A DNA stretch of 48,990 nt from IMG/VR virus record IMGVR_UViG_3300048916_000093, positions 1-48,990 of that record. The stretch is one strand, 5' to 3'. Of this stretch, positions 3,713 to 38,085 are shown one piece after another; the stretch's first letter is position 1, and every line of letters starts with the position of its first letter. Position numbers and translations under genes: made by a program. The notes beneath the pieces are model-generated. The model was not told where the DNA came from and ran no database searches. It was given only the letters and a program-made list of their open reading frames with translations. The stretch comes from a virus.

Positions 3713-4341
3713 TGGCCGGGCCACGCTTCCCCGACGTGCCCGATACGCCCGGCGTACCTCCGGTCTATCGAGACGATTCGAACCCGGCGACACCCCCGAC
3801 GCCCGCGGCGATTGCGACCACGGATAGCGCCCAGGTCCAGGCGAGCGCTCACCCCGCATGGGCCATCGTCAAGGCTGGCGGCGCGGCGGCGATCGGCGTG
3901 GACAGCATCGTAGAGCTCTCCCCCTCCAGAGACTTCCGGATCTCGGATTATCCCGTCGAGAATGGCGGTTTTCAGAACTACAATAAGGTTGCGCTGCCGG
4001 CCGAAACCCGCGTCCTCGTGACCAAAGAGGGCAACGATAGTGACCGACAGGGGTTTTTCGATCAATTGGACGCGCTGATCGAGACGACCGATATGGTCAA
4101 TATCGTAACGCCGGATAGCTCATATCTGGACCGCAACCTCGTGCGCTACAACTTCGATCGTAGAGCCGATCGGGGGCGCGCACTGATCACGGTGGAGTTG
4201 ATTTTCCAGGAGATCCGCCAGACCGCCAAGAGCGCCTTCACGGACAGCAAGCAACCCTCCGGCAATGATCCGGTCAACGACGGCCCGGTCCAGCCGGGAA
4301 CGCCCACCGGGCCACAGACGCCCCCAGGACCGCCCGCATGA
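3712..4341 (+). CDS. Tail tip/baseplate-associated protein (function unassigned)
   Basis: 209 aa, with a TGATG overlap to the tape measure stop. It lies in the baseplate module. Confidence 0.7.
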   Translation: MAGPRFPDVPDTPGVPPVYRDDSNPATPPTPAAIATTDSAQVQASAHPAWAIVKAGGAAAIGVDSIVELSPSRDFRISDYPVENGGFQNYNKVALPAETRVLVTKEGNDSDRQGFFDQLDALIETTDMVNIVTPDSSYLDRNLVRYNFDRRADRGRALITVELIFQEIRQTAKSAFTDSKQPSGNDPVNDGPVQPGTPTGPQTPPGPPA

Positions 4342-4637
4342 GCCTTATTACCGTCCCTCTCGACGCGGTGGCGTCCCAAACCCTCACGGTGGCCCTGGGG
4401 GGCCAGAGCGTGCGTCTCAACGTCTATACGCGCACCTTCGGGCTCTACGTCGACGTTTACGTCAACAATGCCCTGATTATCGGCGGGGTGGCCGCGCTCA
4501 ACCTCGTCAAGATTGTCCGGTCGACCTACCTGGGCTTTATCGGTGATCTCTATTTCTACGATACGTTGGCAAAGGAAAACCCGGTCTATACCGGTTTCGG
4601 GAGTCGTTTCGTGTTGCTCTATGACGACGCGCTATGA
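4338..4637 (+). CDS. Small baseplate-module protein
   Basis: 99 aa, with ATGA overlaps at both ends. Confidence 0.65.
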   Translation: MSLITVPLDAVASQTLTVALGGQSVRLNVYTRTFGLYVDVYVNNALIIGGVAALNLVKIVRSTYLGFIGDLYFYDTLAKENPVYTGFGSRFVLLYDDAL

Positions 4638-5545
4638 GCCTCTCCAAACGCCATATCACCTTGCGGTTCAAACTCGCGCAAGGGGCCTTCGATCAGAATA
4701 ATAACGACAGTTTCGAGATATCCGGACTCCGCGTCTCCGCGACAGTTACTAAGGCCGGCGGCGCGTCGCAATCCAACTTGTCGCTCCGCGTCTTCGGCCT
4801 GCCCCTTTCCGTCATGAATAAATTGACGATCTTGGGTAAGCCGCTTGTCGACGGCCGGAGCAACACCGTATCGATTCTCGCGGGGTCGGACGCGTCGGGA
4901 CAGGCGGCCGTGTTCGAAGGGACCATATCGGAAGCCTGGGTCGACGCTGGCGGCGCTCCGGCCGTGTCGTTCATGGTGGCGGCATTCTCCGGCATCGTGC
5001 CGGCCCTCAAGCCGATCGCGCCCACGAGCTACAAAGGCCCGATCGACGCCGCGCTTGCGGCCTCCGCGCTCGCCCAGGAGAATGGGTATTCGTTCGAAAA
5101 CTCCGGGGTGCAAGTCACCTTGCGGAGTCCTTATTATCCGGGGACCATGCTCTCTCAATTGGAGGCCATGGCTCAAGAAGGGGATTTCAACTACATTCTG
5201 GACGATAACGCGGTATCGCCTGGAGGCATCGCCACGGGTAAAACGTTGGCCATCTGGCCAAAGGACGGCTCGCGCAACGGCGACGTCCCTTTGATCGCGC
5301 CGGACACGGGCATGATTGGATACCCCACACGGACCGAAAACGGTATTTTGGTCCGGACGCTCTTCAATCCCAACCTCGTCTTTGGTGGTCAAATTCAGGT
5401 GGAAAGCTCTCTTACGCCAGCCAACGGCAAGTGGTCGATTTTCAGGATCGAACACGAGCTGGAAAGCGAGACGCCCGGCGGCAAATGGTTTACGTCGGCG
5501 GAATGCTCGATCTTCGGGCAGGGGGTTCCGACGACCAATGGTTGA
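4634..5545 (+). CDS. Baseplate hub-like protein
   Basis: 303 aa, positioned upstream of the spike protein. The segment ...LIAPDTGMIGYPTRTENGILVRTLFNPNLVFGGQIQVESS resembles XkdQ/hub-type proteins. Confidence 0.6.
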   Translation: MSLSKRHITLRFKLAQGAFDQNNNDSFEISGLRVSATVTKAGGASQSNLSLRVFGLPLSVMNKLTILGKPLVDGRSNTVSILAGSDASGQAAVFEGTISEAWVDAGGAPAVSFMVAAFSGIVPALKPIAPTSYKGPIDAALAASALAQENGYSFENSGVQVTLRSPYYPGTMLSQLEAMAQEGDFNYILDDNAVSPGGIATGKTLAIWPKDGSRNGDVPLIAPDTGMIGYPTRTENGILVRTLFNPNLVFGGQIQVESSLTPANGKWSIFRIEHELESETPGGKWFTSAECSIFGQGVPTTNG

Positions 5546-6170
5546 TACCTACGCCGGCACGCAATCCGTCTTTGACGGAGGGACTGAATACAGCCGCATG
5601 GCCTATGTCGTGCGCTCGATCCTGGGCCGCACCGCAACCGCAACACTCGTCATCGTCAAAACCGTGACCAACGCGGGGGAAGTTGAGCCCGTGGGATTGA
5701 TCGACGTCCAGCCGATGGTTGCCCAGCTTGACGGCAAAAGCCAGCCGACGCCGCACGGGATAATCCATGACGTGCCCTATTTCCGCGTCCAGGGCGGCAC
5801 GAACGCCGTTATCATGGACCCCAAGGTTGGGGATATCGGAATCTGCGTTTTTGCGTCGCACGATCTATCGGCGGTGAAAGAGAATAAGGCCCCGTCAAAT
5901 CCGGGCTCGCGCCGTCGTTTCTCTATGGCCGACGCGCTCTATATCGGGGGCGTCCTCAACGGTACGCCCGAAAACTATATCCGGTTCACGAGTGACGGGG
6001 AGATCGAGCTATCGCCCGCGACCAAGGTCAAAATCATTGGCGACCTGGAGGTGACGGGCGATATCTCGACGGAGGATGGGGACGTTATCGCCGGGACGGT
6101 GAGCTTGTCCGATCACGTCCATTCGGGGGTGACGACCGGAGGCGGAGATTCCGGACCACCCGTCCCATAA
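5538..6170 (+). CDS. Baseplate spike / assembly protein V-like (Mu gp45-like)
   Basis: ATG 5538 overlaps the preceding stop. The peptides VKTVTNAGEVEPVGLIDVQPMV...VGDIGICVFASHD...DHVHSGVTTGG are typical of gpV-type proteins. Confidence 0.8.
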   Translation: MVDTYAGTQSVFDGGTEYSRMAYVVRSILGRTATATLVIVKTVTNAGEVEPVGLIDVQPMVAQLDGKSQPTPHGIIHDVPYFRVQGGTNAVIMDPKVGDIGICVFASHDLSAVKENKAPSNPGSRRRFSMADALYIGGVLNGTPENYIRFTSDGEIELSPATKVKIIGDLEVTGDISTEDGDVIAGTVSLSDHVHSGVTTGGGDSGPPVP

Positions 6171-6251
6171 GAGTCCGCGGCGCGTCCGACGGGAGCGCGG
6201 GATTGCACGCCCGGCATCGGCACCATTGGGGATGAATTTTCATACTTGGCC

Positions 6252-6449
6252 CTAACTGCTATCTATCGTGATCTCGTGCCAACAAATGGCGCATTTCCAC
6301 ACAGTCAGGCAACGCCCGATTACACGATCGTCGTAATACTCATGCACGCAGAATTCGTCCGGCGAGCCCAATTCGACCTCGCCGGAGCCGTTGCAATTCC
6401 AGCAAATAATTCTCTTATCGCCCCCGCATTTAGGGCAAGGAACCATCAT
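6252..6449 (-). CDS. Small zinc-finger protein with two DnaJ-type CXXCXGXG motifs
   Basis: 65 aa: MMVPCPKCGGDKRIICWNCNGSGEVELGSPDEFCVHEYYDDRVIGRCLTVWKCAICWHEITIDSS. GAGG lies 8 nt upstream. The ATG overlaps the stop of the upstream peptide gene (ATGA). Confidence 0.6.
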   Translation of the reverse strand: MMVPCPKCGGDKRIICWNCNGSGEVELGSPDEFCVHEYYDDRVIGRCLTVWKCAICWHEITIDSS

Positions 6450-6568
6450 GGGTGGGCCTCGTAGCGGCTTATGCCGTCGAGCGACGCGCGGAAGGAGTCC
6501 ACGGCGGCGCTGATGCCCAGGATGACAACGACCGACAACGCCACCGTGACCAGCAATTTCGCGATCAT
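6446..6568 (-). CDS. 40-aa single-pass membrane peptide (below the ORF-track cutoff)
   Basis: Hand-translated: MIAKLLVTVALSVVVILGISAAVDSFRASLDGISRYEAHP. ATGA overlaps are present at both ends (6565-6568 and 6446-6449). Confidence 0.5.
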   Translation of the reverse strand: MIAKLLVTVALSVVVILGISAAVDSFRASLDGISRYEAHP

Positions 6569-6897
6569 CGTTCAAGCCGATCGTGGAGAGCGACCGCGCC
6601 GTAGAAGTGCTGCCCGCACGCGCGCTCGACGGCTTCGCCAAAACGCCTGTCGCTGCTTGCGATATATCGGCCGCCAAAGCTCACCCCGGCTTGAACCACA
6701 CCGGCCGCATTGACCGGAACGATACGGGCGCAACCGGACGCTCCCGCCGCCTTCATGACCATGACCGGCGGGCATTCGACGGAGGGCTCAAAGGGGCCGT
6801 CCGCATTGATCACGCACACCGCGCGGGCGCGTTCGGGAAGGACCGAAAGCGAGTCGCGCCGGCCCTCGTTGGAAAAGATATTCGCGATAATTCCCAT
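6565..6897 (-). CDS. Hypothetical 110-aa protein, first gene of the opposite-strand cassette
   Basis: MGIIANIFSNEGRRD... AAAGGAA lies upstream of ATG 6897. I recognise no family. Confidence 0.65.
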   Translation of the reverse strand: MGIIANIFSNEGRRDSLSVLPERARAVCVINADGPFEPSVECPPVMVMKAAGASGCARIVPVNAAGVVQAGVSFGGRYIASSDRRFGEAVERACGQHFYGAVALHDRLER

Positions 6898-6930
6898 GTC
6901 TCAATTCCTTTCGAACAAACCATGCACTGG

Positions 6931-6948
6931 CTTGACCGCACGGTCAAG
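6931..6948. promoter_or_regulatory. Perfect 18-bp palindrome CTTGACC-GCAC-GGTCAAG in a divergent intergenic region
   Basis: It presents GCTTGACCG (the recurrent -35-like motif) on both strands. It lies between the minus gene at 6897 and the plus gene at 6994. Confidence 0.6.
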
Positions 6949-6993
6949 CTAATAATGCGAGCATCCCAAATTATTTTGCGTTACGGTGGAAGA

Positions 6994-7347
6994 ATGGACG
7001 CGCTGCTACTCGATCGCGATACGTGGGACTTATGCATTGACGCGTCCAATCGGATAGCCGTCGCCAAAGATCCTTATGCCATTATCCAGAACGTCGCGTG
7101 TGCGGTTCGCCTGTTTATCGGGGAGCTTTGGTACGGTCCCGCGAGCAAGGGCATTCCCTACCGTCAAGAGGTCTTCAATAAGGGATACCCGACGAGCTAT
7201 TACAAGGCTCGCGTCGTCGCTGCGGCTATGGTGGTTCCGGGCGTCGCGAGTGCGAAATGCGTTCTCACCACCTTGACCGATCGCGAAATCAAAGGTCAAG
7301 TCCAGATTGTAACGACCGACGGGCAAGCGCTCGTCGTCGGCTTCTAA
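6994..7347 (+). CDS. Baseplate wedge protein (XkdS/DUF2634- or gp25/W-like)
   Basis: 117 aa from ATG 6994, preceded by GGTGGAAGA. The segment AIIQNVACAVRLFIGELWYGPASKGIPY matches the pattern of this small baseplate family. It lies upstream of baseplate J. Confidence 0.7.
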   Translation: MDALLLDRDTWDLCIDASNRIAVAKDPYAIIQNVACAVRLFIGELWYGPASKGIPYRQEVFNKGYPTSYYKARVVAAAMVVPGVASAKCVLTTLTDREIKGQVQIVTTDGQALVVGF

Positions 7348-7356
7348 GGGGCGAGC

Positions 7357-8778
7357 ATGGGGACGAACGTACCAAAGCCGACGTTCGGCGACAACGGCTT
7401 TACCGCGCCGATTGCGAGTCTGATCAAAGCGGGTGTCTTTGCCGATATCAACGCGGCCTTTGGTGGCGACCTGGACCCGGCCGACGAGACGCCACAAGGC
7501 CAGCTCACGGTAAGCGAATCGGCCATTATCCAATTCGTTTACGATCTCTTCATTCTCTACACGAACCTCGCGGACCCGGCCTTTTCGTCGGGCAGGATGC
7601 AAGACGGGATTGCCCGTCTCTACTTCCTGGAGCGCAACCCGGCCGAGCCCACCACCGTCCAGGCGCTCTGCACCGGGGCAATCGGTGTCGCCATCCCGAC
7701 CGGCGCATTGGCAAAGAGTGCGGACGGCAACACTTATGTTTGCACGGCCGGCGGTCTTATCGGGCCGGGCTCCGTGGTCACGCTTCCCTTTGCCTGCGTC
7801 GCGACGGGGCCGATTGCGTGCCCGGCGAACAGCCTCAATCAGATCTATCGCGCCATTCCGGGGTGGGACACGATCAACAATATCGCGGAGGGCGTCCTTG
7901 GCCGTAACGTCGAGAGCGCCGCGGAATTCGAGCAACGGCGCAAGGACAGCGTTTCGCTCAATGCCGTCGGCGTGCTGCCGGCCGTTCGGGCGGTGGTTCT
8001 CAACGTCCCCAACGTGCTGGACGCCTACGCCACGGAGAATGACACGGACAGCCCGACCACCGTCGGACCCGTGACTCTTGCCGCCAACTCGCTTTATGTC
8101 TCCGTCGCGGGCGGCGCGCCCCTCGATATTGCTACGGCCATTTGGAAGAAGAAGAACCCCGGTTGCGCCTATACCGGTACGACGACGGTGGTTGTTGCGG
8201 ACAGCAATTCCTCTTACTCGACGCCCCCGACATATAACGTCAAATTCACTGTCGCGACCCCCATGCCGGTGCAATTCGTCGTCGAGTTGAAGAGCAGCTC
8301 CGGCGTGCCGGCCAACGCAACGACCTTGATCCAAGCGGCGATCATTCTTGCCTTCGCCGGTGCGGATGGCGGAAGCCGCGCCCAAATCGGTTCGCAGCTA
8401 TTCGCCAGCCGGTATTATGGCAACGTCGCCACCTTGGGGCCATGGGCTCAAATCGTCTCGATCAAGATCGGATCTTCGAACAACGCGACGTGCCAGTTTA
8501 CCGGTTCGATCGCGGCGAACACTTTGACGGTCACGGCGGTTGCGTCGGGCGCTATCGCCGTCGGCCAAACGATCGGGGGTGCCGGCATCCTCGCGGGGAC
8601 GGTCGTAACGGCCTTTGTGTCGGGTTCTGGGGGCACGGGGACATATACCGTCGCCAAGGCCCAGACGGTGGCCAGTGAGGCCATGAACGGCTTCCTAGCC
8701 GATCAGGACAGTATCTTCGCGCATATCGATCAAGTCCCGACGGTGAGCGTCGACGATATTTCTGTCGTCCTCGTATGA
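7357..8778 (+). CDS. Baseplate J-like protein with an extra C-terminal ~65-aa domain
   Basis: 473 aa. The sequence [20 protein letters not shown]...[21 protein letters not shown] is typical of the J family. The C-terminal [22 protein letters not shown]...GGTGTYTV...ASEAM domain is shared with two other virion proteins. Confidence 0.85.
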
Positions 8779-9422: not shown

Positions 9423-10157
9423 ATGCAAAGTAGCGATATTCCGGGCAAGCTCGTTATTCCCTTCGCGGCGTCGGCCGGCGGGGCATATATCCGCTCAATC
9501 CCGGTCAATTCGCAAATTGGCGTCACCGACGGCGCGGCTTCGCTCCACGACGGGTTCGTCCCGCTCAACGCCACTCCGATCGCGGGCGGCGGTGTCCCTC
9601 CCGATATCCGCGACATGAATGGCATCCTTAACGAGATCAGCGCTTGGACGCGTTGGCAATGCGCGGGCGGCCCGATCTTCTACGACGCGGCTTTCTCGAC
9701 AGCCAACGGCGGATATCCGAAGGGCGCGCAAGTCCTCTCCACCGTGACCATTGGTACGGTCTTCTTGTCGATCGTCGAGAACAACACGGCCAATCCGGAC
9801 GTCGATCCGACCAATTGGATTACCGTTGGCGGCTCTTTCGTCACGGGGTTTTCTTCGGGCGTTGGGTACGAAAAGCGGCCGTCGGGCATTATCGAGCAAT
9901 GGGCCACGGTCTATTTTCCCGCGGGTGGCACCGAACCGCTCGTGCCTGTTTCGTTGCTGTTCCCCTACGAGGACGCGACTTTCGGGATTTCGATCACGCC
10001 TTATTTGCTCACAGCCAACAACCGGCGCGATACGATGATGGATATCGTTCAACCCACCGACGGTAGCGGTTTCAGCGTCCAGTATCAACGCATTGGCGAT
10101 GGTGGGACGCCGGGCGTTGATGGCTTTACGTGGCGCGCCGTTGGAAAAGGAGCATAG
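9423..10157 (+). CDS. Tail fibre protein
   Basis: The conserved fibre N-terminus is present: ASLHDGFVPLNATPIAGGGVPPDIRDMNGILNEISAWTRWQCAGG...GGYPKGAQV. Confidence 0.8.
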   Translation: MQSSDIPGKLVIPFAASAGGAYIRSIPVNSQIGVTDGAASLHDGFVPLNATPIAGGGVPPDIRDMNGILNEISAWTRWQCAGGPIFYDAAFSTANGGYPKGAQVLSTVTIGTVFLSIVENNTANPDVDPTNWITVGGSFVTGFSSGVGYEKRPSGIIEQWATVYFPAGGTEPLVPVSLLFPYEDATFGISITPYLLTANNRRDTMMDIVQPTDGSGFSVQYQRIGDGGTPGVDGFTWRAVGKGA

Positions 10158-10159
10158 TC

Positions 10160-10771
10160 ATGACCTTTGTAGCCAAGACGTTTTTCGATCAACTTCGCGC
10201 GTCGTCCATGTTCGCACCGAAACTCACGCAGAGCGAGGTCGACGGTATCAATACGATTATCGGTGCTTGCGCCAGCACGCCCCTATCCTTCTTGGCCTAC
10301 ATGCTCGCCACGACCTATTGGGAAACGGCGCATACCATGCAACCGATCGACGAGTATGGTGGAGATTCCTACTTCTTCCGTCGCTACGACCCGTTCGGTG
10401 CGCGGCCGGATATCGCCAAGCAGCTCGGCAACACGCAAAAGGGCGACGGTGCACTCTTCCACGGCCGCGGCGACGCCATGATTACCGGTCGCGGCAATTA
10501 CGCCCGCGTCGGCAAGCTGATCGGCGTGGATCTCGTCGGCAAGCCGGAGCTGGCGAAGGAACCAAAGACCGCGGCGCGGATTCTTCATGATGGCATGACG
10601 TTCGGGTGGTTCACGGGTCATCGCCTGGGGCAGTATCTTCCGGCGACCGGTCCAGCCACTTACGGGCAATTCGTGCCGTGTCGGTATATCATCAATGGCC
10701 AGGATCACGCGGCCGATATCGCCCATGTGGCCGTCGAGTTTCAAACCATTTCGGGTGAAAGTGGCTGGTAA
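10160..10771 (+). CDS. Endolysin, glycoside hydrolase family 19 (chitinase-like)
   Basis: ATG 10160 follows AAAGGAG. The motifs are LATTYWETAHTMQP and FHGRGDAMITGRGNYARVGKLIGVDLVGKPEL. Confidence 0.85.
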   Translation: MTFVAKTFFDQLRASSMFAPKLTQSEVDGINTIIGACASTPLSFLAYMLATTYWETAHTMQPIDEYGGDSYFFRRYDPFGARPDIAKQLGNTQKGDGALFHGRGDAMITGRGNYARVGKLIGVDLVGKPELAKEPKTAARILHDGMTFGWFTGHRLGQYLPATGPATYGQFVPCRYIINGQDHAADIAHVAVEFQTISGESGW

Positions 10772-10812
10772 TTTCACGCTTTAACGGCTTCTCCATTTGA
10801 AAGATAAATGTC

Positions 10813-11109
10813 ATGGTCGCGGCAGATGAAAACGGGGTCGGGGCGAAGCAAGTGAAACGAGCGGAATGGGCGTCGGCTGTTGCGTTTCTGTTCTCCGCCG
10901 CTACGGCCGTCTTCACCGGCGGTGTCCTTTACGGACAGGTCCAAGCCCAGGGCTCGCGCATCACCGTTCTGGAGAGCCACGACAGCCTCACCACGGCGCA
11001 AATGTCGGACCTCAAGGTTTCGCTTGCCGAGATCAAGACCAATGTCCAGTTTTTGGCCGATCGAGCCCGCGAGGACCGGGCGGCGCGTCTCGGCATCCCG
11101 CAACAGTAA
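10813..11109 (+). CDS. Membrane protein of the lysis cassette (N-terminal TM plus coiled coil)
   Basis: 98 aa. The predicted TM segment is WASAVAFLFSAATAVFTGGVLYG. The role (holin, antiholin or other) is unresolved. Confidence 0.6.
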   Translation: MVAADENGVGAKQVKRAEWASAVAFLFSAATAVFTGGVLYGQVQAQGSRITVLESHDSLTTAQMSDLKVSLAEIKTNVQFLADRAREDRAARLGIPQQ

Positions 11110-11149
11110 TCCTACTTGCGATCAACTAATATCGGAGTTAGAACGTCCC

Positions 11150-11470
11150 ATGCCCGACGACGCGCCCCAGCCTCCGATTGTTGTCGATCCGTCGGTCTTG
11201 GGCGCTTCCGCCGCAATGGCCGTTCGTCAAGTCGCTCTCGTCGGCGGTGGCGTGGTGGCGACAGCGGGCTACCTCCATTCCCATGATTGGGGTGGCCTAT
11301 TCGGCTACCTCTCCGGCGATGGCGCGCCGGCCGTATTCGTCGCGCTCGCGACCATCGGCGTCTTCGCCTACGGTCAAGTCAAACTCTGGCGCGACAGGCG
11401 TGACGCGGTGCGGATGGCCCGTTCGGCGGACGATTCGGTCGCGGTCGTCAAGGGGGAGGAAACCGCTTAA
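11150..11470 (+). CDS. Holin candidate (two TM segments)
   Basis: 106 aa from ATG 11150, with GGAG upstream. The hydrophobic stretches are AAMAVRQVALVGGGVVATAGYL and PAVFVALATIGVFAYGQV, followed by a charged C-terminus. Confidence 0.6.
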   Translation: MPDDAPQPPIVVDPSVLGASAAMAVRQVALVGGGVVATAGYLHSHDWGGLFGYLSGDGAPAVFVALATIGVFAYGQVKLWRDRRDAVRMARSADDSVAVVKGEETA

Positions 11471-11841
11471 TGCCGGGCTTCCTCCTTCTCCTGGGGCGCT
11501 ACTGGTATATTCCCGCTCTGGCGGCGGCCATCTTCGCCATCCTATGGCTTCGCAATGACAACCTCGCCAAGTCCGGCGACCTCAAGGCGGCCAACACTCA
11601 AGTCGCAGACTTGACGCGCGCCAACAAAGCCGCGCAACAGGCGCTCGATAAGGTGACAGCAATCCGTATCGACAACGATGCTATCGCCGCTGCCGTCGCG
11701 GCGAAGATCGGCACGAACACAACCCGCGAGGTACGCACCAACACTGTCATTGAGAAGGCCGCCGCAAATGACCCGCAAGTCCGCGCTGTTACTGACATTC
11801 CTTTGCCTGACAGCCTGCGGGCGGCATTACGCGCCCATTGA
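11470..11841 (+). CDS. i-spanin (Rz-like)
   Basis: It has an N-terminal TM (LLLLGRYWYIPALAAAIFAILWL) and then a coiled-coil-like periplasmic region. The o-spanin gene starts inside it. Confidence 0.7.
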   Translation: MPGFLLLLGRYWYIPALAAAIFAILWLRNDNLAKSGDLKAANTQVADLTRANKAAQQALDKVTAIRIDNDAIAAAVAAKIGTNTTREVRTNTVIEKAAANDPQVRAVTDIPLPDSLRAALRAH

Positions 11842-12049
11842 GCCGATACCGGCCCCGCCCGATCTCCCCGACGCAGCGAACGTCCAGCCGTGCGATACGA
11901 CGGAAGGCGACCCCGCCACCGTGGGCGCGCTGGCCAAGGAATTGACCCACACCCGCAAACAGCGTGACGATTGCGCTGCGAAGGTTGATGCCGTCCGGAC
12001 GTGGCGCACCAACGCTGTGAAGCGCGCGTCGCCGCCGCCTGCGAAATAA
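11768..12049 (+). CDS. o-spanin (Rz1-like lipoprotein), overlapped architecture
   Basis: MTRKSALLLTFLCLTAC carries the lipobox LTAC. The protein is Pro-rich. It starts in the +1 frame within the i-spanin gene and extends beyond it. Confidence 0.75.
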   Translation: MTRKSALLLTFLCLTACGRHYAPIEPIPAPPDLPDAANVQPCDTTEGDPATVGALAKELTHTRKQRDDCAAKVDAVRTWRTNAVKRASPPPAK

Positions 12050-14835: not shown

Positions 14836-15738
14836 ATGACCCCGCACGCATACTGGCGGCTATTCTTCGGGTCGCATGACGGGAGCAACTACAACTTTTT
14901 CTCGCTCTGGCAGCTCGATTTTCAAGACGCGTCGGGCATGTCGCTCTGTTCGGGCGGCACCGCTTTCGCTTCCTCGATCTACGGACCTTACGGACCCGGC
15001 CGGATCTTCCCCGGTGGTGCGAACGATTGGGTTTCGAATAACGAAATGCCCTGTTACGTGGGCTACCATTTTGCGTCGCCCGTGCTGCCCGCGAAGATCA
15101 TGCTTTCGCCGTCCAACACCGGCAATCAACCCGTGATGATTATCGCCCAGTCTTCCGACGATGGCGTGACCTGGACCGACGAATACCTTATCACGAAGCC
15201 GTCGGCATGGACGATTCATGCGCAATATCTGATGAATATCCCGCTAACTGGCGGTGCGGCAACCTCACAACATTGGCTTATGTGGGTGACGCTGCAACAG
15301 GACGGTTCGCCGGGCCAAGCCGTCAACTTCTCGGACATGCGCTTTCTCGACGGAGCCGCCGCGCCGTATCCAGGCTTTACCGATACGCGGGGGACGTCGA
15401 ATAGCGGCACGTTCGATTGGAGTCCCGTATGGAACGGGGGACCGCCGTCGACCGTCTATACTGCCAGCACAACACGAAACGTCTTCGGGCAGGCTTCTTA
15501 CCCGTCGTCCGTCATGGTCCTGGGCCTGTCGGTCCAAGCCCAAGGCGACCCGTTCTATCTCAAACTCACGCCGGCTGGCGGCTCGATATGGTCGAGCGTC
15601 GATAATATGATCTGGGGTCGGGTGTGGGACTTTAGCGACAGCAACGCGACGGGGCTACCGATCGCGCCCCTTCATAAGATCTTTTATCAGACGGCACCCC
15701 CACCCCCGCCAACCCGACATGGCGTGGCGGTTTTCTAG
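14836..15738 (+). CDS. Galactose-binding (discoidin/F5-8 type C)-like domain protein, C-terminal GVAVF
   Basis: HAYWRLFF...LWQLDFQDASG...NDWVSNN...YVGYHF...QSSDDGVTWTD fits the discoidin-like pattern. It ends in HGVAVF. Confidence 0.65.
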   Translation: MTPHAYWRLFFGSHDGSNYNFFSLWQLDFQDASGMSLCSGGTAFASSIYGPYGPGRIFPGGANDWVSNNEMPCYVGYHFASPVLPAKIMLSPSNTGNQPVMIIAQSSDDGVTWTDEYLITKPSAWTIHAQYLMNIPLTGGAATSQHWLMWVTLQQDGSPGQAVNFSDMRFLDGAAAPYPGFTDTRGTSNSGTFDWSPVWNGGPPSTVYTASTTRNVFGQASYPSSVMVLGLSVQAQGDPFYLKLTPAGGSIWSSVDNMIWGRVWDFSDSNATGLPIAPLHKIFYQTAPPPPPTRHGVAVF

Positions 15739-16031
15739 GCACGCTCGCGCCAGCCGACGCCGGTCCCGTTTGCCCGGTTGCATATGAGGTCGGCCATTGG
15801 CGGCCGATTCTTTTCCTTATCTTCCGCGTTGCAATGGTCGGCATACGCGCACAGCTCGGCGAAGGCGGTCTTGCTCGATCCTCCGCTACCGCGCCCAGCT
15901 CGCCACGCTAGAAGCAGCGGCATCGCTACCCTCCCGCGTTTGGACATTCGGTTGTAGAAGGCTTCGCGGCACGTCTGGGCGCAAAAGGAGTTTTTCGCGG
16001 GGCATTCGTTACCGCAATTTTGGCAGGCCAT
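15735..16031 (-). CDS. Zn-ribbon protein (hypothetical)
   Basis: 98 aa from ATG 16031, with AGGAG 8 nt upstream. The N-terminus is MACQNCGNECPAKNSFCAQTC... Its stop overlaps the convergent gene's stop (CTAG at 15735-15738). Confidence 0.6.
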   Translation of the reverse strand: MACQNCGNECPAKNSFCAQTCREAFYNRMSKRGRVAMPLLLAWRAGRGSGGSSKTAFAELCAYADHCNAEDKEKNRPPMADLICNRANGTGVGWRERA

Positions 16032-16050
16032 TGTCGTCGCTCCTAGAGGT

Positions 16051-16065
16051 CGCATGTAACATGCG
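16051..16065. promoter_or_regulatory. 15-bp perfect palindrome CGCATGT-A-ACATGCG (copy 1 of 2)
   Basis: It is the exact reverse complement of the 15-mer at 31916-31930. It overlaps the predicted -10/TSS of the minus-strand promoter for the Zn-ribbon gene. Confidence 0.55.
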
Positions 16066-16070
16066 CTAGC

Positions 16071-16627: not shown

Positions 16628-18946
16628 CTATCCCTTCCGGTATCTATGGCCGCGCCATCCGTCGGCCGCGCGCACTGGCCAGCCGCGCGCCCATACGTCC
16701 ACCCGCGACATTATCTCTTCGACCCGCGCAACGATCGGGTCCGGCACTCCTGGAGGTGACGCGGGGAGCCACGGTATCTCAACGACGATTTCGTCATAAA
16801 CGTGCAAGACAACGTCGAATCCCTCCCGTCGAAGCTCCCGCATGGCGTAGCGCAACAGGCAATGCGCGACGGCCTGGACGACGTTCTCGCATAACCGGCC
16901 GCCGAATGTCGACATGCGAACCCACCCGATCGCGCCATAATTCGGGTTCGTGTTGTCTGTCATATATGACAGGGACAGCTCACCTGGGCTCGCGTACTCG
17001 CGGTCGGAAGGCGCAAGGCGCGGCTCCCAATAAGTGAGGTGGCGGCCGGATGGGAGCCATATCAACAGTCGATCGGTAGCCGTCTCATAGATGAAGTGGA
17101 TATCGGGCGTGTCGGTACGCCAATCACCCATTTCGCCATTGGGGAGCATCTGGCGGAGGCGGGGCCGAATCATCGTGTCGGGGTTCTGGACCGCCTCGAT
17201 CGCCGCACCCTCCAGACCGAAGCTCTCCGCATATCCCTTCCACGGTGGCCCGCGCCATTGGCCGCCCCATAGCTCGACGATCGCGGGTGATGCGGCGCGC
17301 CAAGCCTTGATCAGGTCTTTGACTTGCTGATCGTCGAACGTGTCAGTTTCGTCGAAATTCCGCCATGCCCCAATCCAACCGCCAAAGCCCAAGGCCAACT
17401 CCGCAACCTTGCCGATATTTTGGCGGTCGGGGTGATGCTCGTCATTCTCGCGCTTGTAGCCCTCATACCATTCGACCGTCTTGCCGGTGATCTTGGCGGC
17501 CGACGCGAGATAGATCGGAATGCGATTGTGGAACGCTTCCTTACGCCATGTCTCGCCCGCCAGCTCCGCCGTGACCACGGCCTCAATCGCGCTATAGTCC
17601 GACGCTACGAGCTGCTTCCCGTCGCCGGCACAGAACAGGCCGCGCGAGCATCCGCCCACGCATAGGAGCGCGTCGCCAAAGAAATACTCGACGAGATCCA
17701 ATGACCGGTAGGCCATGATCTCCAGGACCGCGTCGACCATAGCCGGCGTCCAGAGCGGCTTGAGCTTCTTCGGCAGCGGTGCGGCGCACCACGGGCAGGC
17801 ATTATGCGTCGGGGCAAAAGGTTTGGCGCAATGATCACACGTCAAGAGTTTGGGACCTGTGCGGAGCATGTTGAGCGGTTGCGCGCCCTCGCCCGTCGGC
17901 CGCCCGGTTCTTGTACCATGGTGGACGATTGTGTTGCGGACCCGGTTATCGTTCGACGCCATGCGCTGCATCGCGAAGATTTTCTTGACGCTTGCGGACC
18001 CGACGAGAGCCCGTAGCTCGATCGCTCGGCGCGCGGGGAATATGCCGCCTGGGGGGTGCGGCGCGAGCTTCTTTAGCAGCGCTTCGACATGCTCCGCGTC
18101 CAGGCTGTTGACATAGACGTGTTGCGCCGCCAGCCATCCCTTGAGCTTCTCCAGCTCCGTAGGCTTCACGCCTCCGGTTAGCCGCTCCAGCTCTTCTCCG
18201 TAGCGCTCCAGGGCTTGGTTGAGGACGGCCGCGCAATCGTCCACGCCCTTACGGTCGATCGCGATGCCGCGCCAGTTTATCTCCTGATCGAAAAGCCACA
18301 TATCCCGCTCGTCGTCGGTCATCGGCGGCATGGCGGCGCTCGCGGCTTCCTCCGCAATCACGTCGTCGTCGCAATACTCGTAGAGGAATTCCGCGTCGAT
18401 CGGATCTTCCTCCGGATAAATCCAGGTGCGCGGGTCGTTCTTGGTCGGGTTGCGCGGAACGCTGAATTTATTGAGCAACCGCCGGCCGTCCGCGTTCTTG
18501 CGCACGGGAAGCTTTAGGACCTCCGCGAGTCGCGCGAGGCCGCCGGGCAGCGAATTGACGTGAGCGGTGGCCATGGAGCAATGAAGCTGGGCGGGGTTGA
18601 TGGGCGGGAAGCCGTAGAGCCTCATGCACACGTTGACCCAAATCATCCGCTCAAACATGGCGTTGTGGGCTTCGAGGATACCGCCAGCCGCGAGGTAATC
18701 GAAGAGCCGTTGCGGGAGCGGTTGCCCCGGCCGCCACCTCGTGACCGCTATGTCGCCGGGAAGCTTGAACGATAGGGTGAGAACGCGCGTGCTGGGGTGT
18801 TCGGAGTATGGCCCCGACCCGATGACCTGGAGGCCCTTCTTGCCCTGGGGTGCGTTGGGCGGCCCGTCCCATTTTCGGCGGGCCTCATTCCAGCAATAGC
18901 CGGCCTCGCTCGCGGTTTCGTAGTCGAAGGTTCCGTGGATAAGCAT
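16628..18946 (-). CDS. Family A DNA polymerase with 3'-5' exonuclease domain
   Basis: 772 aa. Exo I is HGTFDYET, motif A is LVASDYSAIEAVV and motif C is VLHVYDEIVVE. A Zn-ribbon-containing insertion lies before motif A. Confidence 0.9.
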   Translation of the reverse strand: MLIHGTFDYETASEAGYCWNEARRKWDGPPNAPQGKKGLQVIGSGPYSEHPSTRVLTLSFKLPGDIAVTRWRPGQPLPQRLFDYLAAGGILEAHNAMFERMIWVNVCMRLYGFPPINPAQLHCSMATAHVNSLPGGLARLAEVLKLPVRKNADGRRLLNKFSVPRNPTKNDPRTWIYPEEDPIDAEFLYEYCDDDVIAEEAASAAMPPMTDDERDMWLFDQEINWRGIAIDRKGVDDCAAVLNQALERYGEELERLTGGVKPTELEKLKGWLAAQHVYVNSLDAEHVEALLKKLAPHPPGGIFPARRAIELRALVGSASVKKIFAMQRMASNDNRVRNTIVHHGTRTGRPTGEGAQPLNMLRTGPKLLTCDHCAKPFAPTHNACPWCAAPLPKKLKPLWTPAMVDAVLEIMAYRSLDLVEYFFGDALLCVGGCSRGLFCAGDGKQLVASDYSAIEAVVTAELAGETWRKEAFHNRIPIYLASAAKITGKTVEWYEGYKRENDEHHPDRQNIGKVAELALGFGGWIGAWRNFDETDTFDDQQVKDLIKAWRAASPAIVELWGGQWRGPPWKGYAESFGLEGAAIEAVQNPDTMIRPRLRQMLPNGEMGDWRTDTPDIHFIYETATDRLLIWLPSGRHLTYWEPRLAPSDREYASPGELSLSYMTDNTNPNYGAIGWVRMSTFGGRLCENVVQAVAHCLLRYAMRELRREGFDVVLHVYDEIVVEIPWLPASPPGVPDPIVARVEEIMSRVDVWARGWPVRAADGWRGHRYRKG

Positions 18947-19019
18947 GGTTTCCCCGGCACGGTTCGAACGTGCGTTGGCGAATTCAAAGTCCGCAGTCCT
19001 ACCACTAGACGACGGGGAA
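18946..19019 (-). tRNA. tRNA-Gln (anticodon UUG), 74 nt with encoded CCA
   Basis: Hand-folded: acceptor UUCCCCG/CGGGGAA, D arm GUCU-AGUGGUA-GGAC, anticodon arm GCGGA-CUUUGAA-UUCGC, variable loop CAAC, T arm GCACG-UUCGAAC-CGUGC, discriminator A, then CCA. The terminal A is the A of the polymerase ATG. Confidence 0.85.
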
Positions 19020-27468: not shown

Positions 27469-27855
27469 ATGGGCACCTTCAACGAATTGGCCGACAAGAT
27501 CGAAGCCGCGCTTGACAAAGGGCGACCCGGCATGGCGGCCATCGGCGGCGCGAAGCGTGAGAACAACCTCGTTTTCGATATAGCGCTACAGCTCGATTCG
27601 ATCATGGCCGCCATGGGCGGAGTCATTCTGGCGATACGGGAGATCGACCCTTGTTTGTCCGCTACCCCCGCGGTCCCTCTTCCCCCTCCGCCCCAGGAGG
27701 TAATTAGGGCCATGGTCGAAAAGGCGTTCCGCGCGGGTTTCGGTGATGGGTTCAGTATGGCCGACAATACCAGTCGGTCGGCCGCCAATGCCATTGACGA
27801 GTGTTGGGAGCATTGGGCCGCAAGAGAGCTTGACGGCGCGGTCAACGCAACGTAA
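27469..27855 (+). CDS. Hypothetical protein (128 aa)
   Basis: AAGGA lies upstream. No family recognised. Confidence 0.65.
   Translation: MGTFNELADKIEAALDKGRPGMAAIGGAKRENNLVFDIALQLDSIMAAMGGVILAIREIDPCLSATPAVPLPPPPQEVIRAMVEKAFRAGFGDGFSMADNTSRSAANAIDECWEHWAARELDGAVNAT
27828..27850 (+). promoter_or_regulatory. Promoter/operator GCTTGACGGCGCGGTCAACGCAA upstream of the TetR-like gene
   Basis: The TTGAC-GGCGCG-GTCAA palindrome is present. The candidate -10 is TAACCA at 27853-27858, and ATG 27866 lies 8 nt downstream, giving a leaderless-type arrangement. Confidence 0.5.
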
Positions 27856-27865
27856 CCACATCGCC

Positions 27866-28216
27866 ATGACCTTTCCGCTCACCTCTCCGCAACGAGCCCG
27901 CGAGCCTCGCGCCCAGCGTGCCGAACGTCGTCGCCACGAGCGCGAGGTTTTGATTCTTGACGCGGCGCTCGTGGTGGCCGAACGTGGCTCATATCTCACA
28001 ATGACCCGTCGAGACGTCGCCCGCGAGGCCGGCGTTTCCAACGGACTTATCAACCACGCGTTCGTTACCATGGACGCGCTTCGGGGGGCTGTTATGCGCG
28101 CGGCAATTGAGCGGGAGAATATTGCGATCGTGCGCCAGGGCATCGCGGCCGGCGACGATCTGGCAACCAACTGTCCGCCTGAATTGCGCGAGGCTGTAGC
28201 CCGCTCGATCGCTTAA
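27866..28216 (+). CDS. Short TetR-family-like HTH regulator (116 aa, no obvious ligand domain)
   Basis: REVLILDAALVVAERGSYLTMTRRDVAREAGVSNGLINHAFVTMDAL matches the TetR N-terminal HTH pattern. Confidence 0.65.
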   Translation: MTFPLTSPQRAREPRAQRAERRRHEREVLILDAALVVAERGSYLTMTRRDVAREAGVSNGLINHAFVTMDALRGAVMRAAIERENIAIVRQGIAAGDDLATNCPPELREAVARSIA

Positions 28217-31878: not shown

Positions 31879-31915
31879 GTTGACCGTGGCGGGCCGTGCT
31901 GGCCATTCAGGACAA

Positions 31916-31930
31916 CGCATGTTACATGCG
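31916..31930. promoter_or_regulatory. 15-bp perfect palindrome CGCATGT-T-ACATGCG (copy 2 of 2)
   Basis: It lies 8 nt upstream of the TTGACC -35 at 31939. Confidence 0.55.
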
Positions 31931-34540: not shown

Positions 34541-37114
34541 ATGACCTTTCGCGCGCTGCGGCACGCCGTAATTCGCGCCCTGGGGGGCACGACCGACATG
34601 GCCCCAGCCGTGATCGATTATCGCAAAGGACCTCCTGTCGAACCACGCCGCGTCGCCGGCCTGGGGATGACCGATCAGGATATCGCAGACGCAACGCCGC
34701 CCGAACCGTCGGTGTCGGCCTATGCCATGCCGAAATCTCCGCCGTGGCTCCCGTCATCGGCCGGCGGCATCGCCATGGATAGCGCGGGAATGCCCCCCGC
34801 CCTCACCGCGGCGTCGCTTTATGCCTGGGCGGGCAATGGTGCCTTTGGTGAGGGCCTGGGCTTTCTGGGCTATCCCTATCTGGCGGAGCTTACCCAACGT
34901 CCCGAATATCGTCGCGTCTCCGAGATCTGGGCGGCCGAAGCGGTGCGTAAGTGGATCGAATTTAAAGGCGAAGGCGACCGGATAAAGAAAATCCAAAAAT
35001 CCTTGGAGCGCCTCAAGGTTCGTGACGTCATTCGCCACGCGATCGAGCTGGACGGTTTCATGGGTCGCGCCCAGATTTTCCCGGATCTCGGCTACCATGA
35101 CAACGACGGAGAGTTGCGCGCGATATTCGTCCCGAAGGCCAAGGTGGGCGTCGGCAAGCTCAAGGGGTTCACGGTGATCGAGCCGTTCTGGAGCTACCCT
35201 GGCTCCTACCAATCGACGAACCCCCTCGCCTCCGATTTCTACAAGCCGCGCGAGTGGTACGTCATGGGCAAGATCGTCGACAGCTCGTGGCTGATCACGA
35301 TTGTTGGGCGACCGATGCCGGACCTTCTCAAGCCAGCCTACGCGTTCGGCGGCCTCGCCCAGAGCCAAATGGTCAAGCCCTACGTGGACAACTGGCTCCG
35401 CACCCGCCAGAGCGTTTCCGACCTGATCCACTCATTCTCGACCATGGTCCTCAAGACCAACATGGCGACAATTATTCAAGGTGCGTTGGGCGGCGCGAAG
35501 AAGCTGCTTGACCGTATCAGGCTCTTCAACCGCGGGCGAGACAATCGCGGCCTCATGGCGATCGACAAGGATACGGAGGAACTCGAGAATGTCTCGACCC
35601 CCCTGGGCACGCTCGACAAGCTCCAGGCCCAAGCCCAAGAGCAAATCGCCAGCGTCGCCGGCATTCCGCTTGTCGTTCTCCTGGGCGTCACGCCGTCGGG
35701 CCTCAACGCGTCGAGCGATGGCGAGATCCGCACGTTCTATGCGACGATTGACGGCTATCTCTCGCGGGTAATCAAGCATCCGCTCCAGTACATTATCGAT
35801 TTGGTCCAGCTCGATCTTGACGGAACGATCGACCCCGACCTCACTTGGGATTTCATCCCCCTTTGGGAGACGCCCGAAGCGGAGAAGGCCAATATCCGCA
35901 AGGCCGACGCGGAAACCGATATCGCCTATTGCGCTGCCGGCGTGATCAGTAACGAAAATGTCCGAACGCGCATCACCACCGATCCGGAGAGCATCTATTA
36001 CGGGATGACTCTGGAAGAAGGCGAACCGCCGGCCGATCCGACCTTGGAAGACGATCTCGACGAGGAAGACGATCAGGAGGACGCGGACGGCGGCGGAGAG
36101 CCGGGAAAACCTAAAGGGGGCGTCACGCTCCCCAAGCTCCCTGCCCAGGATGCCCAGCCGGGCGAATTCGACGAAGGAAAGCATCCGCGCGCGCCGGACG
36201 GCAAATTCGGTTCGGGCGCTGGAGGTGGTGGCGCGCCCGCGGAGAAACCCAAGGGTGCCGTCGCGCCGGCTGTTCAATCGATCCTGGGCGACGAGGGCGT
36301 AACGCGGCTCCGCGAGCTGATCGCGGACAAGCAGAGCAAGGCGGCCGACATTATGGCCGTTCTTAAACCGCTCGACGAGGTGGGGCACAATATGACCCCT
36401 ACCCTCCCTCACGACACGACCCCGACCGATTCGTTTTGGCAAGGGCGCACCTACAGCGTCGACGGCAAGCCCGCGACGATTCAGGAGGTAGGCGAACACC
36501 TCGCGGCTACGGCCGAGCATTACGCGGGGCCTGGGGGCGTCAAGCAGCAACGCCGCGCGCGTATCCTCCTGGGGCCGCCGGCCGCCGGCAAGTCAACCAG
36601 CGCGGAAGAGATCGCGCGTCAAGGCGGCTATGCGATCGTGGACGGCGACGACGCCAAGAAGGTCATTCCAGAATTCGAGGGTGGCGTGGGCGCGAGCGCG
36701 GTTCACGAGGAAAGCTCGTATATGGCGGAAGCGGTGTTGGCGGACCAACTCAAGACCGGCAACAACGTCATTCTCCCGCTCGTGGGCGGCAAGCCGGGCT
36801 CGATCGAAAAGCGAATCAAGGTGTTGCGGGACGCCGGCTATGACGTCACCGTGGATCTCGTCGATGTTAACGAGGATGAAGCCGCGCGACGGATGGCTGG
36901 GCGCGCCATGAGGACCGGCCGCCATATCTCGTCGAGCTATTTCGCCTCGATTGGAAACGGCCCGCTCAACACCTATAATTATCTCAAGGATAAGAACCCG
37001 GATCTTGGGTTCGGAAGGATCAACGGCAATGGCGGACACAAAGAGGAACGATACGAGGAAGCCAGCAACCACCCCGACGCTACCCCCGGAAAGTCCCTAT
37101 TCGGAGGAAGCTAA
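34541..37114 (+). CDS. Portal protein (DUF1073-like) fused to a C-terminal Zeta-toxin-like P-loop kinase domain
   Basis: 857 aa. The portal body occupies about aa 1-490. An acidic/Gly linker contains KHPRAPDGKFG. The kinase-like domain has GPPAAGKST, IVDGDD and VILPLVGG. Confidence 0.85.
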   Translation: MTFRALRHAVIRALGGTTDMAPAVIDYRKGPPVEPRRVAGLGMTDQDIADATPPEPSVSAYAMPKSPPWLPSSAGGIAMDSAGMPPALTAASLYAWAGNGAFGEGLGFLGYPYLAELTQRPEYRRVSEIWAAEAVRKWIEFKGEGDRIKKIQKSLERLKVRDVIRHAIELDGFMGRAQIFPDLGYHDNDGELRAIFVPKAKVGVGKLKGFTVIEPFWSYPGSYQSTNPLASDFYKPREWYVMGKIVDSSWLITIVGRPMPDLLKPAYAFGGLAQSQMVKPYVDNWLRTRQSVSDLIHSFSTMVLKTNMATIIQGALGGAKKLLDRIRLFNRGRDNRGLMAIDKDTEELENVSTPLGTLDKLQAQAQEQIASVAGIPLVVLLGVTPSGLNASSDGEIRTFYATIDGYLSRVIKHPLQYIIDLVQLDLDGTIDPDLTWDFIPLWETPEAEKANIRKADAETDIAYCAAGVISNENVRTRITTDPESIYYGMTLEEGEPPADPTLEDDLDEEDDQEDADGGGEPGKPKGGVTLPKLPAQDAQPGEFDEGKHPRAPDGKFGSGAGGGGAPAEKPKGAVAPAVQSILGDEGVTRLRELIADKQSKAADIMAVLKPLDEVGHNMTPTLPHDTTPTDSFWQGRTYSVDGKPATIQEVGEHLAATAEHYAGPGGVKQQRRARILLGPPAAGKSTSAEEIARQGGYAIVDGDDAKKVIPEFEGGVGASAVHEESSYMAEAVLADQLKTGNNVILPLVGGKPGSIEKRIKVLRDAGYDVTVDLVDVNEDEAARRMAGRAMRTGRHISSSYFASIGNGPLNTYNYLKDKNPDLGFGRINGNGGHKEERYEEASNHPDATPGKSLFGGS

Positions 37115-37269
37115 CGAGCGACAGGTGGAATATTTGGAGGGACTTGTTTCGGGCGCGGTGCCCTCTCCCTTTTCCGGAGAAGCGGGTAAAAAGGGCTGAT
37201 AATTTCGCCGTCGAGTATTTTGCGGAGGTACTCGACACGCCGCGCCTCGTTTTCTTCATCCTGGGGCAT
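37111..37269 (-). CDS. Possible 52-aa ORF downstream of the RHH gene (doubtful)
   Basis: MPQDEENEARRVEYLRKILDGEII... It overlaps the RHH gene by 14 nt and has AAAGGAA upstream. The C-terminus is low-complexity, and its stop overlaps the portal stop. Confidence 0.3.
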   Translation of the reverse strand: MPQDEENEARRVEYLRKILDGEIISPFYPLLRKRERAPRPKQVPPNIPPVAR

Positions 37270-37411
37270 TGCCCAGTTTCCTTTCGATAGCGTCGACAAT
37301 CCACGTATTGCGATCGGGCAAGAGGCCGGCGGCCGTCATGCGCTCCAGTGTCGCCACCGGAATACGCACGAGGACCGCGGCGCGTTCGCCTTTCTTGGCA
37401 GGGTTCGGCAT
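37256..37411 (-). CDS. Ribbon-helix-helix (CopG/Arc-like) DNA-binding protein, 51 aa (below the ORF-track cutoff)
   Basis: Hand-translated: MPNPAKKGERAAVLVRIPVATLERMTAAGLLPDRNTWIVDAIERKLGNAPG. It shows the beta-strand then two-helix pattern of RHH proteins. The ATG is the 7th nt after a TAGATA -10. Confidence 0.6.
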   Translation of the reverse strand: MPNPAKKGERAAVLVRIPVATLERMTAAGLLPDRNTWIVDAIERKLGNAPG

Positions 37412-37412
37412 C

Positions 37413-37424
37413 CTTGATATCTAG
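37413..37424. promoter_or_regulatory. Operator site 1: CTTGATATCTAG
   Basis: It is identical to site 3 (39186-39197) and overlaps the -10 of the RHH promoter and the stop codon of the DUF3560-like gene. Confidence 0.6.
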
Positions 37425-37446
37425 CCTCGCGCCGCGAGGAAGGCAA
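37418..37446 (-). promoter_or_regulatory. Promoter candidate (minus): TTGCCT-N17-TAGATA
   Basis: Read on the minus strand. It would yield a leaderless RHH mRNA. Confidence 0.45.
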
Positions 37447-38083: not shown

Positions 38084-38085
38084 GA

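Follow-up and report, generated by a model that had tools for sequence, protein, structure and literature searches.

A probable moron-like accessory island reversed between the spike and wedge genes of a small myovirus clade

Why would three small genes lie on the opposite strand in the middle of a phage baseplate module? The question is raised by positions 6252-6897 of a 48,990-nucleotide (nt) virus sequence (IMG/VR record IMGVR_UViG_3300048916_000093; public gene calls on contig JGI 3300048915, Ga0496112_0000120), which was analyzed at its full length and is called the window below. Three minus-strand genes lie here between a central spike gene and a wedge gene, and a sequence-only reading of the window had presented them as one cassette made of a soluble protein, a membrane peptide, and a zinc-finger protein. 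In our analysis, the locus is a further instance of a familiar kind of feature and holds one member of a catalogued, uncharacterized family. We consider it probable that the locus is a mosaic moron-like accessory island, which one small clade of E217/phiE131-type myoviruses carries in reverse orientation between spike and wedge, and that it serves host modulation.

The three genes are present with the translations proposed by the sequence-only reading: a soluble protein of 110 amino acids (aa), which belongs to PF26991 (DUF8317) and phrog_6045 (6565-6897, minus strand), a 40-aa single-pass membrane peptide (6446-6568, minus strand), and a 65-aa acidic Cys/His-rich zinc-finger protein (6252-6449, minus strand). 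All three are in the public gene calls of the contig. Each open reading frame (ORF) is supported by the guanine-plus-cytosine (GC) content of its codon positions, joined by a family match for the first, a hydrophobic segment for the second, and homologues for the third. The GC contents of the first, second, and third codon positions are 0.68/0.52/0.72 in the 110-aa ORF, 0.59/0.44/0.88 in the 40-aa ORF, and 0.45/0.45/0.64 in the 65-aa ORF; the overall GC contents are about 64% for the DUF8317 and membrane-peptide ORFs and about 51% for the zinc-finger gene, in a genome of 61% GC. A 141-aa ORF (6252-6677), which had been called spurious and thought to hide the 40-aa gene, is indeed rejected as a gene, since its part upstream of the zinc-finger start shows a non-coding pattern (0.72/0.64/0.58).

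Both junctions within the cassette read TCAT on the plus strand and thus ATGA on the minus strand (6565-6568 and 6446-6449), as had been reported; the start of the 40-aa ORF overlaps the DUF8317 stop, and its stop overlaps the zinc-finger start. The 110-aa gene has a Shine-Dalgarno sequence (AAGGA) about 9 nt before its ATG, and the 40-aa ORF has none, as termination-reinitiation coupling predicts. Translational coupling would yield the three products from one mRNA. Overlaps of 4 nt also occur between neighboring structural genes (e.g., 4338-4341, 4634-4637, and 8775-8778) and ATGA overlaps are usual in this genome, so the coupling of the cassette is real but not special. The 40-aa product contains one hydrophobic segment (residues 1-22, Kyte-Doolittle 2.6-2.7), and no homologues of it were found by sequence comparison. 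At the same position, the related genome L001 encodes a 59-aa transmembrane peptide without sequence similarity (17% identity). Judged from its frame composition, the coupling at both ends, and this positional analogue, we take the 40-aa ORF to be a real gene.

The spike and wedge genes directly adjoin in the more distant genome L041 and in phage phiE131 (gp22/gp23). The island is therefore an insertion, in line with the moron-like position and orientation that had been remarked on before. We compared its content between the window and three related metagenomic genomes, L001, L013, and L046. The island of the window consists of DUF8317, the 40-aa membrane peptide, and the 65-aa zinc finger. 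That of L001 consists of DUF8317, the 59-aa membrane peptide, a protein X (62 aa), a zinc finger (70 aa), and a protein Y (74 aa). The closest relative, L013 (hub 97% identical), carries X (56 aa), a zinc finger (76 aa), and Y (74 aa), and lacks DUF8317 and the membrane peptide, while L046 carries X, a zinc finger, and Z, including a different protein with a hydrophobic N-terminus. X is in these relatives a basic protein of 44-62 aa that is coupled to the zinc finger, and neither X nor Y was found elsewhere in the window. The zinc-finger gene is the sole island gene common to all four genomes, and in each of them the preceding gene overlaps its start by ATGA. As the content differs in L013, L001, and L046, the view of the sequence-only reading that the three genes of the window belong together is not supported. 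From these comparisons, the island appears to be a set of swappable accessory genes rather than a fixed three-part system.

The identities among the relatives are 57-63% for the zinc finger, 55% for DUF8317, and 17% for the membrane peptides, versus 81-97% for the hub, spike, and wedge, so that the island proteins diverge faster than the neighboring structural proteins. Searches of Pfam, PHROGs, PADLOC, and NCBIfam with all island proteins, including X, Y, and the 59-aa peptide, returned only phrog_6045 and sub-threshold Cys-motif matches; PADLOC gave nothing beyond a chance-level match of the zinc finger (0.03), and NCBIfam gave nothing significant. With no defense, toxin, or chaperone family found in these four collections, the earlier statement that the combination maps to no described system holds. 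A search of viral and reference-genome contigs with the single wedge sequence gave no relatives, and an aligned wedge query found four distant relatives among metagenome contigs.

The borders of the variable region were examined in the alignment with L001 and L013. The convergent gap between the spike stop and the zinc-finger stop (6171-6251) holds a probable deletion scar: behind the zinc-finger stop of the window, the intergenic sequence and the ATG of Y survive. A 52-aa ORF (6085-6243, minus strand) begins at an ATG matching the Y start of L013 and L001 and continues, antisense, into the spike gene's 3' end; we read it as a probable deletion scar rather than a gene. Over its final 60 nt (6252-6311), the zinc-finger gene shows 88-95% identity between the window, L001, and L013, with 75-90% identity at third codon positions, versus 47-76% in the structural genes. 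The 60 nt beside the wedge gene are 87-92% identical among the same genomes. These conserved borders fit recombination boundaries in this small sample, and the conserved 6252-6311 segment may be either such a boundary or an overlapping element. RNA folding of the island 3' end is no better than that of shuffled sequence, and Rfam gave no match there.

The sequence-only reading had proposed profile and structure searches of all three products, and these assigned the 110-aa protein to a family. Its precomputed PF26991 match is shared by its homologues and makes it a full-length member of DUF8317; a direct scan with a Pfam copy lacking the PF26991 model gave no match, and phrog_6045 matches with E = 3e-9. 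An exhaustive phmmer search found 383 homologous clusters at E <= 1e-3, nearly all of them stand-alone proteins of about 110 aa. In a 60-sequence alignment, D83, R85, and R107 are invariant, and M1, G2, N31, G34, P35, G75, G76, H105, D106, and E109 are nearly invariant; the family signature in the 110-aa protein thus comprises an N-terminal M-G, N31, G34-P35, G75-G76, S-D-S-R-F, and H-D-R-x-E. The AlphaFold2 model (predicted local distance difference test score, pLDDT, 95.5; predicted template modeling score, pTM, 0.88) has seven strands and one helix. Foldseek found no fold match for this model in the PDB (best E 2.3) and only uncharacterized phage proteins in BFVD. A PDB sequence search with the family profile gave chance matches only. 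The modeled fold is apparently new. Pfam matched no domain in longer DUF8317 proteins, which were searched for informative fusions, and literature searches for DUF8317 and phrog_6045 found no papers.

The genomic contexts of DUF8317 differ from the one seen here. Homologues occur in Methylophilales phage Melnitz, in Sinorhizobium phages phiM12, phiM7, and phiN3, in Brevundimonas jumbo phages, and in cluster K mycobacteriophages; siphoviruses are among the carriers. In cultured phages, they sit within arrays of small hypothetical genes, which in Melnitz, phiM12, and TM4 are small early genes, in contrast to the baseplate module of the window. Among the closest homologues, that of L002 is placed within a related replication module, with the helicase on one side and the primase-polymerase on the other; that of L043 lies in an early-type gene array, and that of L044 in a different opposite-strand island, convergent on the portal and zeta-toxin genes. 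The sequence-only reading had suggested looking for the trio elsewhere by gene neighborhood. The 24 IMG/VR contexts, which were retrieved with an 8-sequence subset of the 60-sequence alignment, and several cultured phages have DUF8317 with no zinc finger and no consistent transmembrane peptide, so the trio is not kept together. Taken from these contexts, DUF8317 is an independently mobile gene.

A second opposite-strand region of the window (37080-38266, minus strand) is convergent on the portal gene, and Pfam gave no match in it (37421-38083). The equivalent position of L044 holds a DUF8317 gene and two small ORFs, which suggests that this phage group has several interchangeable accessory islands. 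The portal protein of the window (Phage_portal_3) is itself fused to a C-terminal Zeta-toxin/AAA_33 kinase-like domain (34541-37114, plus strand), and in L044 two separate neighboring genes encode a portal of 568 aa and a zeta-toxin protein of 281 aa.

One DUF8317 member has a recorded phenotype. The product of gene 76 of mycobacteriophage TM4 belongs to the family (hhalign probability 99.7%). Gene 76 alone is reported to slightly repress the growth of M. smegmatis and not to be toxic in M. tuberculosis or E. coli, and the TM4 genes tested in that study are reported to be expressed during infection and dispensable for lytic growth (PMC10269906). In the window, DUF8317 would be a compact cytoplasmic protein, whose conserved polar cluster (D83, R85, H105, D106, R107, and E109) may bind or modify a host target or a small ligand.

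The 65-aa protein has been called a DnaJ-type zinc finger, a label that finds little support. It is acidic (isoelectric point, pI, 4.9), and its homologues P0005, P0154, and the L046 copy are 47-65% identical to it. These three are its only detectable relatives, all in the same island of related genomes; none were found in 185,579 reference genomes, and cultured phages gave only a chance-level match. C5, C8, C16, C19, C34, H36, C47, C53, C56, and H58 are invariant in the protein and its homologues. Both Cys motifs are present, CWNCNGSG fitting CXXCXGXG fully and CPKCGGDK partly; the glycine pattern is not kept in L001 and L013 and is complete only in L046. With two close CxxC pairs and one full CXXCXGXG, the protein resembles the DnaJ CR, the BSD2 CRD, and Anti-TRAP/RtpA, and in being small and acidic it resembles the protein-binding inhibitor Anti-TRAP. 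Unlike DnaJ-type domains, which have four CXXCXGXG repeats and two zinc centers, it has two motifs, and it has in addition a conserved C/H-rich C-terminal half (EFCxHxY...GRCLxVWKCxxC). Its Pfam matches to BSD2_CRD (E = 0.013; 16.1 bits versus a cut-off of 27), GRXCR1-2_C, and Anti-TRAP (14.5 versus 32) are sub-threshold, DnaJ PRK14301 gives E = 0.44, and the DnaJ Cys-rich Pfam model does not match. The protein thus does not belong to the DnaJ-type Cys-rich domains by motif number or by score. The AlphaFold2 model, built from a 3-sequence alignment, is uninformative (pLDDT 46). The acidic zinc finger may act as a protein-binding module.

A second small zinc-finger gene of the window (15735-16055, minus strand) encodes a DUF2116 protein, annotated as a 'probable treble clef', behind the same type of palindromic promoter, and it is conserved in L001 (629-925) and L013 (2308-2607).

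The region between the island and the wedge gene (6898-6993) is a divergent control region, recognized by a palindrome, a promoter-like motif, and its conservation. The palindrome, GCTTGACCG-CA-CGGTCAAGC (6930-6949), is conserved in L001, L013, and L046. It had been described as a perfect 18-bp palindrome; it is not contiguous, being 9 + 9 bp around a 2-nt spacer. It had also been thought to drive the cassette and to face the baseplate genes. The divergent arrangement is as described, but control specific to the cassette is not borne out, as the motif occurs genome-wide: the 16-bp palindrome TTGACSGNNCSGTCAA, with at most one mismatch, has six copies in the window (6932, 16071, 22077, 23793, 27830, and 31939; 0.04 expected) and five in the 9-kb L002 (522, 2546, 3465, 5349, and 8195; 0.02 expected), and it is also present in L001, L013, L044, L045, and L046. 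Each site precedes a start codon by 31-62 nt, and the sites at 6932 and 22077 lie in divergent gaps. The palindrome was rejected as an intrinsic terminator, having no T-run and too short a loop. Several sites are only 31-38 nt from the ATG; should TTGAC be the -35 element, the mRNAs would be leaderless or near-leaderless. Another palindrome, (G)CATGTNACATG(C), occurs in the window (16045-16068 and 31915-31930), in L001 (about 596-610), and in L013 (about 2275-2290); it adjoins some copies of the first palindrome and overlaps the inferred -10 region (CATGTT).

On the island side, the minus strand reads TTGACC-N17-CATGGT, followed by the Shine-Dalgarno sequence, and TTGACC-N17-CATGTT precedes the DUF2116 gene and its L001 and L013 counterparts. 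One palindrome copy (27830-27845) stands directly before a 116-aa TetR-family gene (27866-28216, plus strand), a candidate regulator of the island, which in turn sits just before the primase-polymerase gene. Its product belongs to the TetR family by its TetR_N match (E = 2.7e-8; 33.9 bits versus a cut-off of 24). L002 has the same arrangement, with site 5349 directly before a TetR gene (5403-5723), and the two proteins are 47-49% identical. Because the motif recurs and one copy adjoins the TetR gene on its upstream side in both genomes, the palindrome is probably the operator of the TetR-family regulator of the phage, overlapping the -35 element TTGAC. As in TetR/operator circuits, the small TetR_N gene lies directly downstream of a palindrome that recurs at promoter positions in two related genomes. 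Unlike typical TetR regulators, the 116-aa protein is much shorter and may therefore lack the ligand-binding domain. It is a candidate autoregulated master regulator.

These observations can be joined into one account. The island would be transcribed leftward from a sigma-70-type promoter (TTGACC-N17-CATGGT), whose -35 element lies within the palindrome and whose other half-site faces the wedge operon. A TetR-family regulator acting on the palindromes would switch the island along with replication, packaging, and wedge genes. The island products would target the host and not the virion: the 40-aa peptide is predicted to insert in the inner membrane, and the three genes would contribute independently to a dispensable host-modulating role, be it takeover, exclusion, or counter-defense. 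From their genomic setting, the island genes are likely not baseplate components and likely serve such dispensable modulation. Morons and accessory islands of tailed phages are a familiar kind of element, examples being lom and bor of lambda and the non-essential late-operon insertions of P2. Like them, the island lies between structural genes that adjoin in related phages, varies in content between close relatives, and diverges faster than its neighbors. It also has a putative promoter region, and one of its three genes, the zinc finger, differs in composition from the genome (51% GC versus 61%).

Several points weigh against this account. The case for host modulation is drawn from context and from one weak phenotype of a homologue that is 27-33% identical. 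No integrase was found among the ORFs scanned in the window, so the classical moron definition, which involves prophage expression, may not apply, and prophage expression of the island is doubtful. The promoter motif is shared with core phage genes and is in that respect not autonomous, unlike that of a moron; a consensus promoter scan did not call the island promoter, and only weak candidates stand at the -10 position (CATGGT here; TAGTAC and TTAGGA in relatives). A terminator scan and folding detected no intrinsic terminator after the zinc-finger gene. The proposed binding of the TetR-family protein to the palindrome is deduced from the repetition of the motif and from its placement ahead of the TetR gene. 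Finally, DUF8317 and the membrane peptide are found together in both genomes that have either, and a two-gene functional pair is therefore possible.

The genes could instead form a membrane-acting exclusion, abortive-infection, or toxin-like module, a class of role that the sequence-only reading had put forward, in which the 40-aa peptide would disturb the inner membrane under the control of DUF8317, the zinc finger, or both. A single-pass peptide follows DUF8317 in both genomes with DUF8317 at this site, and the L046 island has its different protein with a hydrophobic N-terminus. In TM4, gene 76 is followed by genes 77-79, which are toxic when co-expressed, and gp78 is a 46-aa transmembrane peptide. 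However, the two membrane peptides of the island show no sequence similarity, and L013 dispenses with both the peptide and DUF8317 yet keeps the zinc finger. Most DUF8317 contexts have no adjoining transmembrane peptide, and PADLOC and NCBIfam gave no matches. Small transmembrane peptides are common in phage accessory regions, and the association may be due to chance. We regard a module of this kind as unlikely.

The zinc finger, as the conserved core of the island, could instead be a small late-gene transcription factor like Ogr/Delta of P2/P4, in which case the inserted island would serve regulation by restarting wedge-operon transcription. The island does bring a bidirectional palindromic promoter region, which is absent where spike and wedge abut, the region beside the wedge gene is 87-92% conserved, and the zinc finger is coupled to the basic protein X in the relatives. 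The acidic pI of 4.9 is, however, unusual for a DNA binder, and Pfam gave no match to Ogr_Delta or any DNA-binding family. The Cys spacing, C5-X2-C8-X7-C16-X2-C19, differs from the C-X2-C-X22-C-X4-C of Ogr/Delta and places the protein outside that family. For the palindrome, the TetR-family protein is the stronger candidate, and the uninformative model of the zinc finger lends no help. The idea of a transcription factor earns little credence from us.

A further thought is that DUF8317 and a zinc-ribbon module make up a two-part unit, in which the zinc finger would assist or regulate DUF8317. A small CxxC-rich segment is attached to DUF8317, or encoded directly after it, in several independent lineages: such segments are fused in P0011/L042 (C-terminal) and P0072, Cys-rich N-terminal extensions occur in P0053 and P0116, and adjoining CxxC-rich genes are found in L002 (45 aa), L043 (67 aa, 8 Cys), and L029/L033/L034 (94 aa). 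These Cys-rich segments show, however, no homology among themselves or with the 65-aa protein, and the association was counted without a background rate. About two-thirds of the lineages examined have no CxxC-rich segment, and L013 and L046 keep the zinc finger without DUF8317. As an explanation of this locus, the two-part unit is quite improbable. A bolder version, in which DUF8317 is a new widespread phage effector fold that acts with a small zinc-ribbon partner to neutralize a host factor or an immune signal in counter-defense or takeover, is a long shot; if true, it would be a counter-defense or takeover module not recognized before.

Least credible is a role of the three proteins as chaperones of baseplate assembly or as minor parts of the structure, with the zinc finger as a DnaJ/BSD2-like folding factor for the spike or wedge, since the location inside the baseplate module and the weak similarity to DnaJ-type Cys-rich domains (BSD2_CRD) are set against the opposite strand, the absence from L041 and phiE131, which share the same baseplate, the variable content, the occurrence of DUF8317 in siphoviruses and early regions, and Pfam scores that all fall under the curated cut-offs.

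The phage that carries the island is, by its gene content, a myovirus with an E217/Pam3-type tail and baseplate. The window ends (1-127 and 48864-48990) are identical over 127 nt, which makes the window a circularly closed genome of 48,863 bp, in which the sheath gene (566 aa) crosses the circle junction (48016 to 853). The baseplate genes matched in Pfam and PHROGs encode a Dit-like protein, a plug, the hub gp41, a gpV-Apex spike, a gp25-like wedge, Baseplate_J, and a DUF2612 wedge. The island is flanked on the left by the central spike gene with its gpV Apex motif (5538-6170, plus strand; Pfam Apex E = 1e-4) and on the right by the gene of the gp25-like wedge or sheath initiator (117 aa; 6994-7347, plus strand; phrog_120 E = 1.5e-23). 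The publicly called wedge start at 6922 (141 aa) was rejected, as it crosses the palindrome and as relatives and other gene callers favor 6994; the 117-aa form is present in L001, L013, L010, and L012. By the hub, the closest cultured phages are the Burkholderia thailandensis phages phiE131, phiE058, and PE067 (42% identity).

Elsewhere, the window encodes a family A DNA polymerase, a DUF2800 protein, a helicase, an NrS-1-type primase-polymerase, a small terminase subunit, and the portal-Zeta-toxin fusion. A tRNA-Gln gene (anticodon TTG; 18946-19019, minus strand) lies directly upstream of the family A DNA polymerase gene (16628-18946, minus strand). The lysis cassette comprises, all on the plus strand, a GH19 endolysin (10130-10771), a holin-like transmembrane protein (10813-11109), and an embedded spanin pair, in which an i-spanin-like protein (11470-11841) is joined by an o-spanin-like ORF that has a lipobox (11678-12049). 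This cassette with its spanin pair (10130-12049) points to a Gram-negative host. The 40-aa island peptide was also considered as a holin and rejected, as the separate lysis cassette lies 3.5 kb away on the other strand.

Read as a moron-like accessory island, the locus is a worked example of a hot spot at which a conserved baseplate operon tolerates an opposite-strand accessory insertion. The insertion brings a putative bidirectional promoter/operator, and close relatives carry it with reshuffled content. Two targets emerge from it, DUF8317 and the TetR-like regulator, neither of them surprising in kind. In a phage in which no integrase was detected, this short regulator, acting through about six palindromic operators, may tie together the control of early, packaging, and baseplate genes. 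DUF8317 is a tractable target, being a large phage-only family with a confidently modeled, unmatched fold, an apparent active or binding site, and one weak phenotype on record.

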